Positions 2,606-24,265 of a stretch of 64,000 nucleotides of DNA are shown in pieces. Position numbers and translations under genes: made by a program. Position 1 is the first letter of the stretch. Every line of letters starts with the position of its first letter. Origin of the DNA: Escherichia coli. GTDB taxonomy: Bacteria > Pseudomonadota > Gammaproteobacteria > Enterobacterales > Enterobacteriaceae. The notes beneath the pieces are model-generated. The model made no database searches, had not been told where the DNA came from, and saw only the letters and a list, made by a program, of their open reading frames with translations. The stretch lies in NCBI RefSeq assembly GCF_016026235.1, contig NZ_CP065613.1. One strand, written 5' to 3'.

Positions 2606-3859
2606 ATGACATTCTCCCTTTTTGGTGACAAATTTACCCGCCACTCCGGCATTACGCTGCTGATGGAAGATCTGAACGACGGTTTACGCACGCCTGGCGC
2701 GATTATGCTCGGCGGCGGTAATCCGGCGCAGATCCCGGAAATGCAGGACTACTTCCAGACGCTACTGACCGACATGCTGGAAAGTGGCAAAGCGACTGAT
2801 GCACTGTGCAATTACGACGGTCCACAGGGGAAAACGGAGCTACTCACACTGCTTGCCGGAATGCTGCGCGAGAAGTTGGGTTGGGATATCGAAGCACAGA
2901 ATATTGCACTAACAAACGGCAGCCAGAGCGCGTTTTTCTACTTATTTAATCTGTTTGCCGGACGCCGTGCCGATGGTCGGGTCAAAAAAGTGCTGTTCCC
3001 GCTGGCACCGGAATACATTGGCTACGCTGACGCCGGACTGGAAGAAGATCTGTTTGTCTCTGCGCGTCCGAATATTGAACTGCTGCCGGAAGGCCAGTTT
3101 AAATACCACGTCGATTTTGAGCATCTGCATATTGGCGAAGAAACCGGGATGATTTGCGTCTCCCGGCCGACGAATCCAACAGGCAATGTGATTACTGACG
3201 AAGAGTTGCTGAAGCTTGACGCGCTGGCGAATCAACACGGCATTCCGCTGGTGATTGATAACGCTTATGGCGTCCCGTTCCCGGGTATCATCTTCAGTGA
3301 AGCGCGCCCGCTATGGAATCCGAATATCGTGCTGTGCATGAGTCTTTCCAAGCTGGGGCTGCCTGGCTCCCGCTGCGGCATTATCATCGCCAATGAAAAA
3401 ATCATCACTGCCATCACCAATATGAACGGCATTATCAGCCTGGCACCTGGCGGTATTGGTCCGGCGATGATGTGTGAAATGATTAAGCGTAACGATCTGC
3501 TGCGCCTGTCTGAAACAGTCATCAAACCGTTTTACTACCAGCGTGTTCAGGAAACTATCGCCATCATTCGCCGCTATTTACCGGAAGATCGCTGCCTAAT
3601 TCATAAACCAGAAGGAGCCATTTTCCTCTGGCTATGGTTTAAGGATTTGCCCATTACGACCGAGCAACTCTACCAGCGCCTGAAAGCACGCGGCGTGCTG
3701 ATGGTGCCGGGGCACAACTTCTTCCCGGGACTGGATAAACCGTGGCCGCATACGCATCAATGTATGCGCATGAACTACGTACCAGAGCCGGAGAAAATTG
3801 AGGCGGGGGTGAAGATTCTGGCGGAAGAGATAGAAAGAGCCTGGGCTGAAAGTCACTAA
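2606..3859 (+). CDS. avtA: Valine-pyruvate aminotransferase (alanine-valine transaminase)
   Basis: The ORF-track ORF 2501..3859 has an unsupported 5' extension; the internal ATG at 2606 gives a 417-aa product starting MTFSLFGDKF, matching the AvtA N-terminus. Class I/II aminotransferase with the SLSKLG PLP-lysine motif. Confidence 0.9.
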   Translation: MTFSLFGDKFTRHSGITLLMEDLNDGLRTPGAIMLGGGNPAQIPEMQDYFQTLLTDMLESGKATDALCNYDGPQGKTELLTLLAGMLREKLGWDIEAQNIALTNGSQSAFFYLFNLFAGRRADGRVKKVLFPLAPEYIGYADAGLEEDLFVSARPNIELLPEGQFKYHVDFEHLHIGEETGMICVSRPTNPTGNVITDEELLKLDALANQHGIPLVIDNAYGVPFPGIIFSEARPLWNPNIVLCMSLSKLGLPGSRCGIIIANEKIITAITNMNGIISLAPGGIGPAMMCEMIKRNDLLRLSETVIKPFYYQRVQETIAIIRRYLPEDRCLIHKPEGAIFLWLWFKDLPITTEQLYQRLKARGVLMVPGHNFFPGLDKPWPHTHQCMRMNYVPEPEKIEAGVKILAEEIERAWAESH

Positions 3860-3862
3860 AAA

Positions 3863-3965
3863 TTGCCTGATGCGCTACGCTTATCAGGCCTACATAATTT
3901 CTGCAATATATTGAATTTGGAAGAATTTGTAGGCCGGATAAGGCGTTTACGCCGCATCTGGCATA
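3863..3965. repeat. REP/BIME palindromic units
   Basis: Inverted copies of the REP consensus (GCCTGATGCGCTACGCTTATCAGGCCTAC … GTAGGCCGGATAAGGCGTTTACGCCGCATC) downstream of avtA. Confidence 0.8.
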
Positions 3966-4009
3966 AACAAAGCGCACTATTCCGGCGTTGAGAAACGCCG
4001 GAAAACGTT

Positions 4010-4489
4010 TCAAACAGGCTGCTGCCGTAGCCGATGCCGCTGCACTTTCTCGACATCCATGCACTGCAACGCCTTTGTCGGGCAGGCTTCAACACAGGCC
4101 GGCCCCGTCTCCCGATGCCAGCACAGATCGCACTTAATCGCCCTCGCCTTTTTGCGCGAAGAAACGACCTCCATCGCACCAAACGGGCAAGCCAGCATAC
4201 AGCTTTTACAGCCAATGCAACGTGTTTGTTCAACGAAAATATGCCCATGTTCGCGGCTTATCGCGTCAACAGGGCAGACATTCGCGCACGGTGCATCTTC
4301 ACACTGATGACAGGCTACTGCCGTGGTCCAGCTGTGGTCTTTAATGACACGAATACGGGAAATAAACTCGTCTGGTGACAACGCAGCGCAATCCTGATTC
4401 TCCTGATGCGACACTGCGCAAGCCACTTCACAGGTACGGCAACCGATACATTTCGTCGCATCCGCAATAATAAACCGGTTCATGATCAC
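4010..4489 (-). CDS. ysaA: 4Fe-4S ferredoxin-type protein
   Basis: 159-aa ORF with four CxxCxxCxxxCP cluster motifs; position downstream of avtA matches ysaA in E. coli. Confidence 0.8.
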   Translation of the reverse strand: MIMNRFIIADATKCIGCRTCEVACAVSHQENQDCAALSPDEFISRIRVIKDHSWTTAVACHQCEDAPCANVCPVDAISREHGHIFVEQTRCIGCKSCMLACPFGAMEVVSSRKKARAIKCDLCWHRETGPACVEACPTKALQCMDVEKVQRHRLRQQPV

Positions 4490-7178: not shown

Positions 7179-9158
7179 ATGAACATTTCGGAAGTCGATC
7201 TGCATAAACTGACGGTCAGCGATCCGTTCCTCGGTCAGTACCAACAACTGGTCCGCGACGTGGTGATTCCTTATCAGTGGGATGCCTTGAACGATCGTAT
7301 CCCAGAAGCGGAACCCAGCCATGCGATTGAAAACTTTCGCATTGCCGCCGGACTTCAGGAGGGTGAATTTTACGGGATGGTGTTTCAGGACAGCGACGTC
7401 GCCAAATGGCTGGAAGCGGTAGCCTGGTCGCTGTGCCAGAAGCCGGACGCCGAACTGGAAAAAACCGCCGACGAGGTAATCGAACTGATCGCCTCCGCCC
7501 AATGCGAAGACGGCTATCTCAATACTTACTTTACGGTAAAAGCACCCGAAGAACGCTGGAGCAATCTGGCGGAGTGTCATGAACTTTACTGCGCAGGTCA
7601 TCTGATTGAAGCCGGAGTCGCCTTCTTCCAGGCCACGGGAAAACGGCGCTTGCTGGGGGTCGTTTGCCGCCTGGCCGATCATATCGACAGCGTATTTGGT
7701 CCAGATGAAAGTAAGTTACACGGTTATCCTGGTCACCCGGAAATTGAACTGGCACTAATGCGCCTGTATGAAGTGACTGAAGAGCCGCGCTACCTGGCGC
7801 TGACGAACTATTTTGTCGAACAGCGTGGTGCGCAACCGCACTATTACGACCAGGAATATGAAAAGCGCGGGCAGACATCGCACTGGCACACCTACGGCCC
7901 GGCGTGGATGGTGAAAGACAAAGCCTACAGCCAGGCACATTTGCCCCTTGCGCAACAGCAAACCGCCATCGGTCACGCGGTACGTTTTGTCTATCTGATG
8001 ACCGGCGTCGCGCATCTCGCGCGTTTAAGTCACGATGACAGCAAGCGTCAGGACTGCCTGCGGCTGTGGAACAATATGGCCCAGCGTCAGTTATATATTA
8101 CCGGCGGCATTGGCTCGCAAAGCAGCGGCGAAGCGTTCACTAGCGATTACGATCTGCCGAATGACACGGTATACGCTGAAAGTTGCGCCTCCATCGGCCT
8201 GATGATGTTTGCCCGACGAATGCTGGAAATGGAAGGCGACAGTCAATATGCCGATGTGATGGAGCGCGCACTGTACAACACCGTGCTCGGCGGCATGGCG
8301 CTGGATGGCAAACATTTCTTCTATGTGAATCCGCTGGAAGTACATCCAAAATCGCTGAAATTCAACCATATCTACGATCACGTTAAACCGATCCGCCAGC
8401 GTTGGTTTGGCTGCGCTTGTTGTCCGCCAAATATCGCCCGCGTGCTGACCTCGATTGGTCATTATCTCTACACGCCGCGTGAAGATGCGTTGTATATCAA
8501 CATATACGCAGGAAACAGCATGGAAGTGCCGGTAGAAAATGGCACGCTGCGCCTGCGGGTTAGCGGGAACTATCCGTGGCAGGAGCAGGTGACGATTGCG
8601 GTTGAATCGCCCCAGCCGGTACGTCATACGCTGGCTTTACGTCTGCCGGACTGGTGCACACAGCCGCAGATCATATTGAATGGGGAAGAGGTCGAGCAGG
8701 ATATTCGTAAAGGGTATTTGCACATTACCCGCGAATGGCAGGAGGGCGATACGCTGAATCTGACTTTGCCGATGCCGGTACGCCGCGTTTACGGTAACCC
8801 GCTGGTGCGTCACGTCGCCGGAAAAGTGGCGATTCAGCGCGGCCCGCTGGTGTATTGCCTGGAACAGGCCGACAACGGCGAGTCACTGCATAATCTGTGG
8901 CTGCCCACCGATGCGCCATTTACGACATTTGAAGGCAAGGGATTGTTTAGCCATAAGATCTTAATCCAGGCACCGGGTTACCGGTATGAACAGAGCAATC
9001 CAGAGCAGCAACCGCTGTGGCATTACGACAGCGCGCCAGCCAAACGCCAGCCGCAAACTCTGACCTTTATCCCGTGGTTTAGCTGGGCTAACCGGGGCGA
9101 AGGCGAAATGCGGATCTGGGTGAATGAGGAAAAGCATCGCCATCCGGAGGTTGGATAA
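7179..9158 (+). CDS. Glycoside hydrolase family 127-like protein (DUF1680, beta-L-arabinofuranosidase family)
   Basis: A start at ATG 7179 is preceded by an AAGGAG RBS; the ORF-track start at 7155 overlaps the transporter stop. The 659-aa product contains a Cys-rich CACCPPN motif of the kind found in GH127 enzymes. Confidence 0.7.
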   Translation: MNISEVDLHKLTVSDPFLGQYQQLVRDVVIPYQWDALNDRIPEAEPSHAIENFRIAAGLQEGEFYGMVFQDSDVAKWLEAVAWSLCQKPDAELEKTADEVIELIASAQCEDGYLNTYFTVKAPEERWSNLAECHELYCAGHLIEAGVAFFQATGKRRLLGVVCRLADHIDSVFGPDESKLHGYPGHPEIELALMRLYEVTEEPRYLALTNYFVEQRGAQPHYYDQEYEKRGQTSHWHTYGPAWMVKDKAYSQAHLPLAQQQTAIGHAVRFVYLMTGVAHLARLSHDDSKRQDCLRLWNNMAQRQLYITGGIGSQSSGEAFTSDYDLPNDTVYAESCASIGLMMFARRMLEMEGDSQYADVMERALYNTVLGGMALDGKHFFYVNPLEVHPKSLKFNHIYDHVKPIRQRWFGCACCPPNIARVLTSIGHYLYTPREDALYINIYAGNSMEVPVENGTLRLRVSGNYPWQEQVTIAVESPQPVRHTLALRLPDWCTQPQIILNGEEVEQDIRKGYLHITREWQEGDTLNLTLPMPVRRVYGNPLVRHVAGKVAIQRGPLVYCLEQADNGESLHNLWLPTDAPFTTFEGKGLFSHKILIQAPGYRYEQSNPEQQPLWHYDSAPAKRQPQTLTFIPWFSWANRGEGEMRIWVNEEKHRHPEVG

Positions 9159-10019: not shown

Positions 10020-10142
10020 GTCCGGTATTCCATTTTAAAATAAGATAAAAAAGAGTCGGCATAGTAATGCTTACAATTTCTCCGGTGCAAGATTCATATT
10101 TATATAGTAATATATAAAATTATATATAATTGGGCTGTTGCG

Positions 10143-11117: not shown

Positions 11118-12250
11118 TGATCGAGATAAAGGTAATGCACCCAGCTGGTCATGCGTAATAACACTTTGCGCATCACCGAGACATGGCTGAAATGATCAGA
11201 GTAGACCGCCACCTGGGCGTAAATACCGTCTGGTAAAGCGCTCAAATCAGTGTGCTCATTCAGTTCAATGGTCGCGATAACGCCATCTGAACCCGGCGCT
11301 GTGTTTAACGTCTGTAAGGTGCCGGTCGACTGATAAGCTCCGCTGGGAACAGCTGGACTAATGGCTGCCAGCTTACCGCTGAACACTTTGCCTGGCAGAG
11401 CGTTAAATACCACTTCCGCATCATCGCCGGGAGCCAGGCGCAGCAAGGAGTTCTGACGGAACTGCGCCACGATTTGTCGTTTCTGATCGGGTATAAACAC
11501 CATCACCGGACGTAGCGGCAGCGACGCGGCATAGGTACCCGGACGAATCAGCACCTGGGTCACATAACCATCGCTCGGCGCACGCACTATCGTCTGCTCA
11601 AGGTTATATTTTGCTTCCGCGAGCTGCGCTTTCAGGCTGGCGATTTGAGAATGTTCACCCAGCACCAGGCTATCCAGCTGGCTCTGGATCTGTTTTTGTT
11701 CCGCCGCTGATGACTTCACGGAGGCTTCCTGCGCCAGATAATTTTGCCGCGCCACATCGATATCGCGTTCTGAAAACGGGTTTACTTTCGCCTGGCTGCC
11801 GCGTGCGTAACGCTGATACTCTTTAGCGAATTTATCCCGCGTGGCCTTTGCCTGCTGAGTATTCGCCGCCATCTCATCTAACTCTGCGCCCAACGCCCGC
11901 TGTTTATGTTCTGCGGTAACGATATCCGCCATCAGCCGATCCACCCGCGCCTGATAACGCGTCGGGTCCAGTCGAAATAGCACTTCACCTTTTTTAATCA
12001 GCGTATTTTTCTTATCCGTCACTTCAATCACCACACCAGTCACCTGTGGGACAACAGGAATAGAAATAACCGCTTTTTGCGCTTTAAAGGTATACGGATG
12101 GTTATAGTTCATTAACAGAATTAGACCGCTGACAATAAATATTCCACCCAGGGCCGCTGTGGGAATGGTCCATTTATTTACGGGAATTTTGAAGATCTTA
12201 AACATTGCCCATGCAAAAGCCACATAGGTCAAAATAATCAGTAAATCCAT
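11114..12250 (-). CDS. yiaV: HlyD-family membrane-fusion-like inner-membrane protein
   Basis: 378-aa ORF with one N-terminal transmembrane helix and a long coiled-coil region; paralog of the ORF at 20176..21312. Confidence 0.8.
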
Positions 12251-12255
12251 AAGTA

Positions 12256-12579
12256 TTACTCGGCAGAAGAGGATTTGATGTCGGCGAGCTGTTTCTCCAG
12301 CCCGGCAATGCGCTGTTGCAGTTGCATAACGGATGAATCATGGCTTTGCATTCCCCATCCCCGCTCCGGGCGGTAAAGCGTGGCCCAAATCCACAAAAAC
12401 GGCCAGATAACATGTAACGTAAAAAGACTCACCCAACCAGCAACATGAATGGCGTCGGCATGAGGATGATTACGTTTTTTAGCAATCAGGTAGGGAATAT
12501 CATGTAAAATAATAATCCCATAAAATATCACCAGAAATACAAAAATAAGCACTCCCAGCGCAAAATAGTCTAGGAACAT
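12256..12579 (-). CDS. yiaW: Small inner-membrane protein (DUF3302 family)
   Basis: Start chosen at the internal Met ([13 protein letters not shown]…) by alignment with the paralog at 21315..21677; two transmembrane helices followed by a C-terminal coiled coil. Confidence 0.7.
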
Positions 12580-12989
12580 ATTTCCCTCAAAGAATATAAA
12601 AAAGAACAATTAACGCATATTATGAAATGCCATGATGCAGTGCAATTTCCTTATTTATATAACGACATATTGTTTTTATATACTTTCTGAAGTGTGCTGC
12701 GTGGCTTTTCAACAGGTCGAGGTTTATCATATTGAAATAATGGAACTATTGACCAAGCTAATGAATAACTCCAGTAAAACATCCACAGTACAGATAAAGC
12801 GTATTAAACCTTCAATTATCTACCGTTTATTGCTGATTGGCCTCGAAACGCCACTGGTGATTTACGGCCTGGTTTGCCCGCTCACCATCGAAACGCGAGA
12901 TTAAACTCCTGGCAAAACACGCCCCAGAAACGCACTTCTGTTGGCGTAGTCTGGGTTATTGCGCACGTAGGTTTAAAACGTAAATTGTA

Positions 12990-13095
12990 ACAACGTGCGC
13001 TTTGTTTATGCCGGATGCGGCGTGTACGCCTTATCCGGCCTACGGTCAGGTCCCCGTAGGCATGATAAGACGAGTAAGCGTCGCATCAGGCAATG
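12990..13095. repeat. REP/BIME palindromic units
   Basis: GCCGGATGCGGCGTGTACGCCTTATCCGGCCTAC and an inverted partner downstream of aldB. Confidence 0.75.
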
Positions 13096-13122
13096 AATAC
13101 CCAATGCGACCAGCTTCTTATA

Positions 13123-14661
13123 TCAGAACAGCCCCAACGGTTTATCCGAGTAGCTCACCAGCAGACACTTGGTTTGCTGATAATGCTCCAGCATCATCTT
13201 ATGGGTTTCGCGTCCGATGCCCGACTGTTTGTAGCCGCCAAACGCCGCATGTGCCGGGTAAGCGTGATAACAGTTGGTCCACACGCGCCCAGCCTGAATG
13301 CCGCGCCCCATCTTATAGGCCAGATTACCGTTGCGGCTCCAGACGCCCGCGCCCAAGCCATATTGCGTATCGTTCGCCAGCTCCAGAGCTTCTTCCATCG
13401 TTTTGAAGGTGGTTACCGCCAGCACCGGGCCAAAAATCTCCTCCTGGAACACGCGCATATTGTTCTGACCAAACAGAATCGTCGGTTCGAGGTAGTAGCC
13501 GTCTTTCAGTTCACCTTCCAGCAGCTTGCGCCGCCCGCCGGTGAGCACGTCTGCGCCCTCTTTTTTACCGATATCAATGTAGTTGAGGATGGTTTCCAGT
13601 TGCCCGTGAGAAACCTGCGCGCCCATTTGCGTCACGCTGTCGAGTGGGTTACCGCTGCGAATGCTTTCGACACGGCGGATGGCGCGTTCCATAAAGCGTT
13701 CGTAGATTGACTCCTGCACTAAGGCACGACTCGGACAGGTGCAAACTTCACCCTGGTTAAAGGCAAACAGTGCAAAGCCTTCCAGCGCTTTATCGAAAAA
13801 GGCATCTTCTTCATCCATCACATCAGCAAAGAAGATATTTGGCGATTTGCCGCCCAGCTCCAGCGTCACCGGAATAATGTTTTGCGTTGCGTATTGCATA
13901 ATTTGTTGGCCCACTTCCGTTGAGCCGGTAAACGCCACTTTGGCGATGCGTTTCGAGGTCGCCAGATATTCGCCAATTTCCCCACCAGCGCCATTGACCA
14001 CGTTCACCACGCCCGGCGGCAGTAAATCACCGACGATTTCCATTAGCAGCAGTACAGAAAGCGGGGTAAGACGTGCGGGTTTCAGCACCACACAGTTGCC
14101 CGCCGCCAGCGCGGGAGCCATTTTCCAGCTCGCCATCAGCAGCGGGAAGTTCCACGGGATAATCTGCCCCACCACGCCTAACGGTTCATGGAAATGATAG
14201 GCCACGGTTTCGCTATCAACTTCACTGATCCCACCTTCCTGCGCCCGAATACACGAGGCGAAATAGCGGAAATGGTCAATCGCCAGCGGTACATCCGCAG
14301 CACTGGTTTCGCGAATGGGTTTGCCGTTATCCCAGGTTTCAGCTGTCGCTAACAGCTCGAGGTTTTGTTCCATTCGATCGGCAATCTTAAACAGAATCGC
14401 CGCGCGATCCTGCACCGAGGTGTGCGCCCATTTATCTTTCACTTTGTGCGCAGCATCCAGCGCCAGATCGATGTCTCGTTTGCCCGAAGACGCCACTTCG
14501 CACAGCAGCTGCCCGGTCACCGGCGTCAGGTTCTGGTAATACTCACCATCGGCAGGGACTACCCATTCGCCACCAATAAAGTTGTCGTAGCGGGCTTTTA
14601 ACTTGAGGGGGAAACCATACTCGCCGGGCTTAATCTGTGCTGAAGGGGGATTATTGGTCAT
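13123..14661 (-). CDS. aldB: Aldehyde dehydrogenase B
   Basis: The 558-aa ORF-track ORF was trimmed to the Met giving [19 protein letters not shown]… (512 aa), matching AldB; ALDH catalytic Cys region present. Confidence 0.9.
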
Positions 14662-20175: not shown

Positions 20176-21312
20176 TCAATGATCCAAATAAAGATAATGC
20201 ATCCAGCTGGTCATTCTTAGCAGCACTTTTCGCATCACCGAAACATGGCTGAAATGGTCGGAGTAAACTGCCACCTGGGCGTAAATGCCGTCGGGTAAGG
20301 CATCGATATCATCGTTAGGGTCCAGTTCAATGGTTCCCAGCACACCGTCCGTGCCGGGCACGACCGTTAATGATTGCAATACCCCCTGCGCCTGATAAGA
20401 ACCGCCTGGCACGACAGGTAAAATACTGGTCAGTTTGCCGTGGAACACCTGCCCAGGTAGCGCGTTAAACACCACTTCCGCATCATCGCCAGGTTTCAGA
20501 CGTAACAGCGAGTTTTGCCGAAATTGGGCGACAATTTGCCGTTTTTGCTCGGGGATGAAGACCATCACCGGACGCAGCGGCAAGGCAGCGGCGTATGTGC
20601 CTGGGCGGATCAGTACCTGAGTGACGTAGCCATTGCTCGGTGCGCGAATGACGGTCTGTTCAAGGTTATATTTTGCTTCTGTAAGTTGCGCTCTTAAGCT
20701 CACAATCTGCGATTGCTCGCCGTTAACCATACTGTCGAGCTGGCTCTGGATCTGCGCCTGCTCCGCCACCGAGCCTTTCACCAGCGCATCCTGCGCGAGG
20801 AAATTTTGCCGCGCATCGTCGATGTCACGTTCCGAGAACGGATTCACCGCCGCCTGGCTGCCTTTCAGATAACGTTGATAATTTTTAAACAGACGGTCGC
20901 GCTCCGCTGAAACCTGGGTGGTGTTGGCCTGCGCTTCAGTGAGCTGCGCGCGCAGCGTCTTTATATTATGCGTCGCCGTCATCAGGTCAGCCTGAAGTCT
21001 GTCAACTCGCGCCTGGTAACGAACCGGGTCGAGCTTAAAAAGCACCTCGCCCTTTTGAATAAGCTGATTATTCTTGTCAGTGACTTCAGTAACAATTCCC
21101 GTCACCTGTGGCGTGATGGGGATCGCTATCACAGCCTTTTGCGCGGTAAAAGTGTAAGGGTGGTTGTAGTTCATCAACAAAATCAAACCACTCACCAGAA
21201 ACACGCCTCCCAGCGCCGCCGTCGCCAGCGTCCACTGATTCACCGGAATACGAAAGATTTTAAAGACCGCCCACGCCAGCGCCACATAAGTTAAAACAAT
21301 CAATAGATCCAT
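20176..21312 (-). CDS. yibH: HlyD-family membrane-fusion-like inner-membrane protein (yiaV paralog)
   Basis: 378-aa ORF with high protein and nucleotide similarity to 11114..12250 (same length, same start MDLLI(V/I)LTYVA…). Confidence 0.8.
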
Positions 21313-21314
21313 AA

Positions 21315-21677
21315 TTAGATCTCCGGGAACGTGGAATAGTCAGTCTTTTTCTCGGCGGCGAGTTGGTGCTCCAGCCGGGAAATTCGGTCAGAAAGTGCGG
21401 CGATTTCCGGGTCAGTCGCTTTCTCCTGCGACGCAACATGTGACTGCATACCCCAGCCACGCTCCGGTTGATAGAGCGTCGCCCAGATCCACAGAAACGG
21501 CCAGATAACATGCAGAGTAAACAGGCTCACCCAGCCCGCCGTATGAATAGCGTCGGCATGGGGATGGTTGCGCTTTTTGGCAATCAGATAAGGGATGTCA
21601 TGTATCGCGATGATTCCATAAAAAATCACCAGAAAGACGAAGATCAGCACTCCCAACGCGAAATAGTTTAGAAACAT
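21315..21677 (-). CDS. yibI: Small inner-membrane protein (DUF3302; yiaW paralog)
   Basis: 120-aa ORF; the first roughly 75 residues are near-identical to the yiaW product. Confidence 0.75.
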
Positions 21678-21893
21678 ATTTGCCTCGGATTCACGTTTAT
21701 CAGTGTTGTTTTTTGGCTGGCAGCCAGAAGGGAGTCAGGCTGATATTTTGACAATAATCCGGGTTCGCGATTCTCGCCATAACACCAAAGAATAATTTTT
21801 AGAGGTGATGAGTTGCTTAGTTACATAACGATTGTATGACGAAGGCATAACATGCTGTAGATCACATCAGGTGAACGCCGTAAGAAAATATCT

Positions 21894-24149: not shown

Positions 24150-24265
<116 letters not shown>

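Follow-up and report, generated by a model that had tools for sequence, protein, structure and literature searches.

Relics of lost genes are familiar in the intergenic DNA of Escherichia coli, where they reflect ordinary genome decay, and two of them (ysaC and ysaD) are annotated in K-12 in the neighbourhood of yiaW and aldB. REPs, which are likewise extragenic, serve in mRNA 3'-end protection or in termination. Genomic SELEX with K-12 placed an RpoD-holoenzyme site in the yiaW-aldB spacer and assigned it to yiaWV (PMC3946193 Table 2); the authors predicted the hexamers CAGACA-17-TATAAA inside the peak, and the same spacer was flagged as containing an H-NS site in vitro (PMC3946193). A ChIP-exo and RNA-seq study of YiaU, the LysR regulator encoded nearby, found yiaT derepressed in a yiaU mutant and reported yiaT, waa and adeP, not yiaWV, as targets (PMC9068703); yiaW is not mentioned in that paper or its supplements.

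We analysed the yiaW-aldB spacer in a 64,000-nt window of an E. coli genome (contig NZ_CP065613.1), the whole stretch of DNA referred to below as the window. Its features are listed in Table 1. The spacer is a mosaic of regulatory DNA, the remnant of a gene that we call orf104, a scrap of hicB and a REP pair, and taken as a whole it is very probably explained best as layered gene decay next to live regulatory DNA. The nearest match of the region is E. coli strain 042 (99.3% over 581 nt, megablast), and the spacer occurs in the form seen here in about 3780 of 5426 complete E. coli genomes. Strain alignments comprised nine E. coli spacers, that of the window and those of eight other strains.

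The original prediction had described a spacer of about 540 bp with a very AT-rich left half that carries a 90-codon plus-strand open reading frame (ORF). These dimensions hold: the spacer measures 543 bp, its right end falling at 13122 because the aldB stop is at 13123, GC content is 0.29-0.37 across 12500-12850 compared with 0.5-0.6 in the flanking genes, and the ORF is present with an ATG start. Scanned against Rfam with a permissive E-value, 12000-13600 gave nothing beyond three sub-threshold matches to naRNA4 (REP325), located in the BIME-type unit, so no sRNA or riboswitch is called. A consensus promoter and terminator scan performed at chance level, giving one weak promoter-like site on the minus strand (12755 to 12726) and two terminator-like sites inside yiaW. 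In strain XDL the spacer carries an inserted IS903B.

Table 1. Features of the yiaW-aldB spacer and related loci (window coordinates unless another sequence is named; nt positions).
Feature	Coordinates	Strand	Remarks
yiaW	12256-12579	-	From comparison with RefSeq annotations
yiaW-aldB spacer	12580-13122		543 bp
Predicted yiaW 5' leader	12580-12616	-	Shine-Dalgarno GAGGG at 12588 to 12584; extent inferred from candidate promoter
Candidate sigma-70 yiaWV promoter	12617-12645	-	-35 TTGCAC at 12645 to 12640, 17-nt spacer, -10 TAATAT at 12622 to 12617
90-codon ORF, ATG start	12632-12904	+	Promoter DNA (codons 1-43) plus orf104 remnant (codons 44-90)
Conserved AT-rich cis element, putative YiaU operator	12641-12682	-	TATATA-N-ATATG-N-TTATATAAATAAG-N3-ATTGCA
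Literature-assigned yiaWV promoter	12675-12703	-	CAGACA-17-TATAAA in K-12; CACGCA-17-TATAAA here
orf104 remnant, 47 codons plus stop	12761-12904	+	From protein and DNA alignments, tblastn
Deletion junction in orf104	12863-12877	+	One copy left of an imperfect 15-nt direct repeat
hicB relic, last 23 codons plus stop	12901-12972	-	TYVRNNPDYANRSAFLGRVLPGV, then stop
BIME-type unit	12973-13095		Stands where hicA and most of hicB were
BIME left flank	12973-13009		
REP	13010-13043	+	0 mismatches to consensus pattern
REP, inverted	13056-13091	-	1 mismatch to consensus pattern
Predicted aldB 3' trailer	13080-13122	-	Stable hairpin at 13110 to 13080; reaches the proximal REP
orf104 remnant in MG1655	3,754,611-3,754,754	+	
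Intact orf104, Citrobacter amalonaticus (locus L009)	3498-3812		104 aa; between yiaW and aldB
Intact orf104, Pseudocitrobacter vendiensis (locus L010)	7458-7769		103 aa

The part of the spacer next to yiaW, 12580-12703, probably comprises the promoter, an operator and the leader of yiaWV. It had been proposed that the AT-rich DNA was the yiaWV promoter or an H-NS-bound region, and this can be kept for the leftmost 125 bp or so, which agree with the SELEX data (PMC3946193) and contain a conserved block of about 42 nt. Across Escherichia, Citrobacter and Pseudocitrobacter (22 loci) hardly a base of the block has changed, in contrast to the AT-rich DNA around it, and TGAGG and ATATG are kept in 22/22 aligned yiaW upstream regions. 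Its core, TTATATAAATAAG (12650-12662 here, minus strand), precedes yiaW by 83-112 nt in each of the 21 loci that carry yiaU. Upstream of yiaW/yibI homologues in loci where yiaU was not detected there is no comparable core, only weak matches with two mismatches at other distances. A near-identical element is found in the divergent yiaU-yiaT region of 20/20 loci, at 10095-10107 in the window. Because of this distribution of the motif, and because yiaT is derepressed in a yiaU mutant, we suggest that the element is a YiaU operator common to the yiaT and yiaWV promoters. Both features expected of such an operator, co-occurrence with yiaU and a second copy in the yiaU-yiaT region, were found.

The position of the promoter itself is ambiguous. 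The candidate TTGCAC-17-TAATAT promoter, with a predicted start near 12610, lies directly downstream of the conserved element; the ATTGCA is conserved across genera, and a layout of TTGCA, about 17 nt and TATTAT recurs on the yiaT promoter side. The literature-assigned hexamers lie further upstream, and the start-site supplement that we consulted has no entry for the yiaW-aldB spacer. The conserved element might also be read as core promoter, acting as an UP-element-like AT tract or an H-NS nucleation site and not as a YiaU operator. Its extreme AT-richness, the H-NS binding reported in the spacer and the absence of yiaWV from the listed YiaU targets fit that reading. It does not readily explain why the element is preserved across three genera when the equally AT-rich flanks are not, why it is present only where yiaU is adjacent, why every yiaU-yiaT control region examined has a second copy, or why loss of YiaU derepresses yiaT. 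We regard it as possible but rather doubtful, and prefer the YiaU operator.

The 90-codon ORF is a chimera, specific to the lineage of this strain, and not a gene as such. Its length is unremarkable: when the spacer was shuffled 2000 times with its dinucleotides preserved, 8.9% of the results contained an ORF of at least 90 codons. When codon usage was scored by log-odds, with the window's 33 long ORFs as training set, codons 1-43 had -0.07 bits/codon and were surpassed by another frame, whereas codons 44-90 had +0.15 bits/codon, the highest of the three frames (yiaW scores 0.21), so that the poor coding character first ascribed to the ORF applies to its front half only. At about 12673 the window has a T-run that is shorter by one T than in 8/8 of the other aligned strains; in 042 and K-12 the 90-codon frame is broken after codon 15, and the PGAP annotations of these two strains have a 67-aa or 47-aa product in place of the 90-aa one. 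Conservation across strains had been suggested as a check on the ORF, and by this check the frame is not conserved. Loss of the T in this lineage would have joined an upstream ATG within the yiaWV promoter to a 47-codon frame, creating the longer ORF. When the 90-aa product was compared by tblastn with loci fetched through YiaW, residues 42-82 gave matches of about 50% in other genera.

These matches lead to intact genes. Whole orf104 genes were found in six of the compared loci; among the carriers, Escherichia sp. E1V33, E. whittamii, E. coli EC42405 and E. coli 6409 have the gene at the same site as the window. In the last two PGAP annotates a 104-aa hypothetical protein; the EC42405 product is WP_001064341.1, also recorded as 'MULTISPECIES: hypothetical protein [Escherichia]' (104 aa). 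The Citrobacter protein, used as a database query, retrieved 30 clusters, nearly all of 102-106 aa and 57-94% identical, from sources that include Salmonella bongori, Pseudocitrobacter, Klebsiella sp. and Superficieibacter. Homologues of 103-105 aa align to the intact E. coli protein without internal gaps at 33-93% identity. A profile search of 1.84 billion representatives gave 400 clusters (at 50% identity) with E <= 1e-3, 159 of them with E <= 1e-10, typically 98-125 aa long, with Franconibacter, Rahnella and Pasteurella testudinis among the members named. Pairwise dN/dS between intact genes of different species is 0.09-0.30. The AlphaFold2 model of the intact protein (pLDDT 81.5) has long helices at residues 17-44 and 59-95 connected by a short hairpin loop; the best Foldseek match of this model in the PDB had a meaningless E-value of 3.5, and Pfam and NCBIfam scans of the remnant, the intact proteins and ten distant members produced no hit above threshold. 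The constant neighbour of orf104 is aldB, which is convergent with it at 30-60 nt in S. bongori, Klebsiella sp. RIT-PI-d, Superficieibacter and C. amalonaticus, and in Pseudocitrobacter the gene is located between yiaT and sgbE. Given the gap-free homologues, the low dN/dS, the 400 clusters, the confident model and the constant aldB neighbour, orf104 is to all appearances a real, conserved 104-aa gene of several Enterobacteriaceae genera, predicted to encode a two-helix membrane protein. The Pseudocitrobacter location raised the idea that K-12 ysaC is a second orf104 relic, which was rejected as its strand does not fit and a tblastn search of the window with orf104 matches the copy at 12761 only.

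The 47-codon remnant retains residues 1-39 and 97-104 of orf104 and has no residues 40-96. Its residues 1-39 are 92% identical to the intact E. coli allele, the corresponding codons 44-82 of the ORF are 43-60% identical to the N-termini of intact 103-105-aa proteins of other genera, and its last eight codons and stop align to intact C-termini. Compared with intact Escherichia alleles at the same site, the window lacks a single block of 171 nt (57 codons), in frame. In 6409 and EC42405 TACGGTCTGGTTTGC and TACAGCCTGGTCCGC, identical at 11/15 positions, mark the borders of the block, whose loss may have occurred by slippage or illegitimate recombination between these imperfect repeats. The junction occurs in two variants, …GTTTGCCCG and …GTTCGCCCG; recurrent deletion was considered on this account and set aside in favour of the simpler explanation of one deletion and a T/C polymorphism at 12875. 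The converse possibility, an ancestral 47-aa gene that grew to 104 aa by an insertion, is contradicted by the presence of the long form in at least five other genera. The remnant is convergent with the 3' end of aldB, on the same side and in the same orientation as in five of the compared loci, among them C. amalonaticus.

With the block went the last part of helix 1, the whole of helix 2 with the conserved loop before it, and nearly every invariant residue: G46, W52, N53, G59, T78, G88-L89-W90 and S93 all fall within the deletion. The N-terminal motif KR[IV]K-x3-IYRL-x-LIGLG-x-P survives as KRIKPSIIYRLLLIGLETP, with the near-invariant G29 changed to E. At 47 codons the remnant lies outside the 98-125 aa and two long hydrophobic helices that characterise the family.

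The remaining frame appears, from its pattern of variation, to be a pseudogene drifting almost neutrally and not a functional gene. In the same nine E. coli strains, all with the deleted allele, pN/pS is 0.72 for the remnant and 0.047 for yiaW, although the former value comes from nine strains and 47 codons and some of the nonsynonymous differences fall in the N-terminal tail, a segment that is variable in intact genes too. Segregating sites number 12 nonsynonymous and 6 synonymous in the remnant against 3 and 20 in yiaW (Fisher p = 8e-4). There is thus no sign in the remnant of the purifying selection seen in the intact genes (dN/dS 0.09-0.30). Near-invariant glycines of helix 1 are replaced by Glu in the window allele and by Val in that of O157. 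Remnant variants in protein databases show frameshifts, small in-frame deletions and loss of the stop, and in at least eight different fusions the remnant is joined to foreign sequence that looks like an IS end.

The alternative is that the 47-aa product (90 aa here) is a live single-pass membrane protein that acquired its own function once the deletion had occurred. The 171-nt loss is in frame and the 47-codon frame is open in 9/9 aligned strains, so a short single-helix peptide could still be made; with 18 variable sites about one disruptive change is expected under neutrality, and the open frame is therefore not significant in either direction. The KRIK-x3-IYRLLLIGL segment of helix 1 is kept, codon usage is weakly gene-like, and PGAP calls the remnant in most genomes as a hypothetical protein. 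Against this stand the relaxed constraint relative to yiaW, the radical changes at near-invariant glycines, the deletion of the most conserved family residues (W52, N53, G59 and G88-L89-W90) and the numerous disrupted variants and IS insertions. In addition, sequence inspection revealed no obvious Shine-Dalgarno ahead of 12761, the spacer is reported as H-NS-bound, the site has no entry in one Ribo-seq small-ORF supplement, and a live 90-aa form would need the 1-nt deletion that none of the 8 other strains shares. We consider a live protein unlikely, and it is correspondingly improbable that the remnant, which roughly 70% of complete E. coli genomes carry, still yields a single-pass mini-protein with its own role. 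Such a protein might modulate the neighbouring YiaWV, a system of the DUF3302/HlyD type, or some other partner in the membrane, and would be a new small protein born through internal deletion of a larger one. The caution that a small membrane peptide might be encoded here pointed in the right direction, but the evidence is for a dead gene and not a live one.

A reading in which the AT-rich half consists of nothing but promoter or H-NS-bound non-coding sequence, with an ORF there by pure chance, is scarcely credible: the frequency of such ORFs in shuffles, the lack of coding signal in codons 1-43 and the SELEX sites for RNA polymerase and H-NS (PMC3946193) would fit, but codons 44-82 and the last eight codons align to the N- and C-termini of intact proteins, and intact Escherichia alleles differ by exactly one 171-nt block. 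By these alignments the non-coding reading is refuted for 12761-12904 and stands for 12580-12760. The view that the ORF is not a gene is accordingly right for the 90-codon frame, which is broken in 042 and K-12 and is created by a T-run deletion that the eight other aligned strains lack, and misses that codons 44-90 descend from a 104-aa gene.

Immediately beyond the remnant, the spacer contains the end of hicB. The stretch 12874-12972 resembles strains in which hicA-hicB adjoins aldB (H25 and H26, megablast), and the translated relic matches EC42405 HicB at 22/27 residues with a 4-residue gap (BLASTP, E = 2e-12), which corresponds to a further 12-nt deletion at about 12923/12924. The intact proteins of the pair match PF15919 (HicB) and PF07927 (HicA). 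The annotated CDSs of orf104 and hicB in EC42405 share 4 nt at their 3' ends; the window has this TTAA too (12901-12904), and there the two stops overlap by 2 nt. The full HicB_lk_antitox domain is gone; only residues 110-136 of HicB are left, interrupted by the 4-residue gap and with an in-frame stop immediately upstream, and a tblastn search with HicA found no match to hicA in the window. Judged by what is left of its reading frame, the relic cannot act as a toxin-antitoxin system. Intact hicAB is present at this locus in 506/5426 genomes. The sampled matching genomes that have no intact hicAB contain an unannotated hicB scrap of 38-49 nt; 3902 genomes match in all. Two phylogroup-B2-like strains keep hicAB, have lost yiaUVW and retain only the last ~30 nt of orf104. 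Our literature search found no paper tying hicAB to the aldB locus.

The second half of the spacer had been taken to be a REP/BIME cluster. Two REPs are indeed present within ~12973-13095, but 12901-12972 belongs to the hicB relic, and the breakpoint between relic and BIME-type unit falls between 12972 and 12973. The REPs are imperfect palindromes of ~35 nt that form an inverted, extragenic pair repeated in the genome, and in shuffled sequence no match to the REP consensus is expected by chance. The BIME flank and REP recur at ~3870-4020 in the window, other REP copies are found at 3929-3962 and 24228-24261, and query positions 422-484 match other places in the genome at a median of 3 per genome. 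Folded as minus-strand RNA, 12975-13125 gives -60.1 kcal/mol (z = -5.1). The pair probably forms a structured 3' end of the aldB transcript and may act in its protection or in termination.

A sequence of events can be proposed from the alleles that still exist. The ancestral Escherichia order would have been yiaV and yiaW on one strand, orf104 on the other, and then hicB, hicA and aldB on the same strand as yiaWV; the full yiaV-yiaW-orf104-hicB-hicA-aldB order is still intact in E. coli EC42405. In a first step the whole of hicA and hicB up to its last 23 codons would have been lost, the BIME-type REP unit now being in their place. E. coli 6409 and E. whittamii, in which hicAB is lost and orf104 whole, represent this intermediate state. 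In a second step the in-frame deletion of 171 nt would have taken orf104 residues 40-96. The deleted segment is still present in 28/5426 complete E. coli genomes. Escherichia sp. MOD1-EC7003 has a different orf104 deletion and keeps only the C-terminal 42 codons.

For annotation, the PGAP 'hypothetical protein' between yiaW and aldB of most sampled E. coli needs a pseudogene flag; the scrap of hicB is unannotated in every sampled genome, and the curated MG1655 record has no gene at the site of either relic. For evolution, the locus offers a stepwise series of loss within one species, from intact through hicAB lost to orf104 deleted, or by the alternative loss of yiaUVW. It also points to an unnamed and fairly widespread two-helix family, with about 400 clusters at 50% identity and aldB as constant partner, and the element shared by yiaT and yiaWV makes yiaWV a predicted member of the YiaU (LpsR) regulon.

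Set beside known systems, nothing in the spacer is surprising in kind. Like LysR-type operators, the putative YiaU element is AT-rich, partly symmetric and duplicated at the divergent promoter of the regulator and at an adjacent operon, and it co-occurs phylogenetically with yiaU; it differs in that yiaWV is not among the published YiaU targets. The remnant has the start, last eight residues, stop and aldB-convergent position of the unnamed ~100-aa two-helix family, from which it differs by the absence of 57 internal codons and by near-neutral evolution. With the hicAB type II toxin-antitoxin module the hicB relic shares its stop, its site and the overlap with the orf104 stop, whereas only 17% of hicB is left, with a 4-codon deletion, no start codon and no hicA. 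Both relics are the same kind of object as ysaC and ysaD, the latter a short remnant of a GH127 gene that is intact in the window at 7179-9131, but unlike these they have no pseudogene entry in the curated MG1655 record. The REP pair agrees with E. coli REP/BIME elements as known, two inverted consensus REPs that are extragenic and directly 3' of a gene, and is notable only for occupying the place of the lost hicAB segment.

An AT-rich element conserved upstream of yiaW, the putative operator of the LysR-type regulator YiaU, has a near-copy in the yiaT-yiaU divergent region. Because this near-copy is present there in all 20 of the 20 related loci, the sequences suggest that a single regulator, probably YiaU, acts on both the yiaT-yiaU and the yiaW promoters. 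The window also encodes a paralogous DUF3302/HlyD pair of the yibI-yibH type, and the region upstream of this pair does not contain the conserved yiaW element, the sole exception being a weak match with two mismatches at 21816-21828. A yiaW homologue was also found in a Myxococcus assembly (L076), on a contig of 433 bp with a coverage of 0.7, and is almost certainly enterobacterial contamination.

Features of the window
Feature	Position	Strand	Location	Remarks
GH127 glycoside hydrolase gene, intact	7179-9131	+		98% identity to B2-strain protein
Near-copy of the conserved yiaW-upstream element	10095-10107 (and 10080-10125)		yiaT-yiaU divergent region	CTATATAAATATG + TATATA repeats + TTGCA
DUF3302/HlyD pair, yibI-yibH type	20179-21677	-		paralogous to YiaW/YiaV, ~76% identical

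The remnant of orf104, an unnamed gene for a 104-residue membrane protein with two helices, varies among strains at its deletion junction. The codon at 12875 is either TGC or CGC, so that residue 39 is Cys in some strains and Arg in others, and synonymous changes at 12865 and 12868 in the junction repeat are also polymorphic. Recurrent deletion may have produced these variants; we read them as polymorphism that arose after the deletion. Independent decay of orf104 by a distinct deletion is seen in Escherichia sp. MOD1-EC7003 (L007 3741-3869), where the 5' part is gone and the C-terminal 42 codons are left.

E. coli XDL (L094 476-1444) has IS903B inserted in the spacer, within the AT-rich stretch that separates yiaW from the remnant, and database proteins reveal at least eight further fusion junctions to foreign sequence within the remnant; the site therefore seems to tolerate insertions or to attract them. 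In the 124-residue database protein P0036 (Escherichia sp. R-CC3, from a 374-nt contig), the remnant is joined to the C-terminus of AldB, despite the opposite orientation of their genes; this fusion probably reflects either a local inversion or an error of assembly.

In Escherichia sp. E1V33 (L006 169-350), hicA of the toxin-antitoxin pair hicAB is apparently frameshifted, being recovered as two tblastn segments in different frames, and its neighbours hicB and orf104 are both intact. In Pseudocitrobacter faecalis (L011 7518-8124), hicAB adjoins the expected site of orf104, which itself extends past the end of the locus; the sister species P. vendiensis (L010) has orf104 at the corresponding site without hicAB. 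The Pseudocitrobacter site, between yiaT and sgbE, differs in chromosomal location from that in Escherichia. The hicAB pair may insert preferentially beside the 3' end of orf104, or may travel together with that end.

The K-12 counterpart of the GH127 gene is reduced to the annotated pseudogene ysaD (L004 919-1107).
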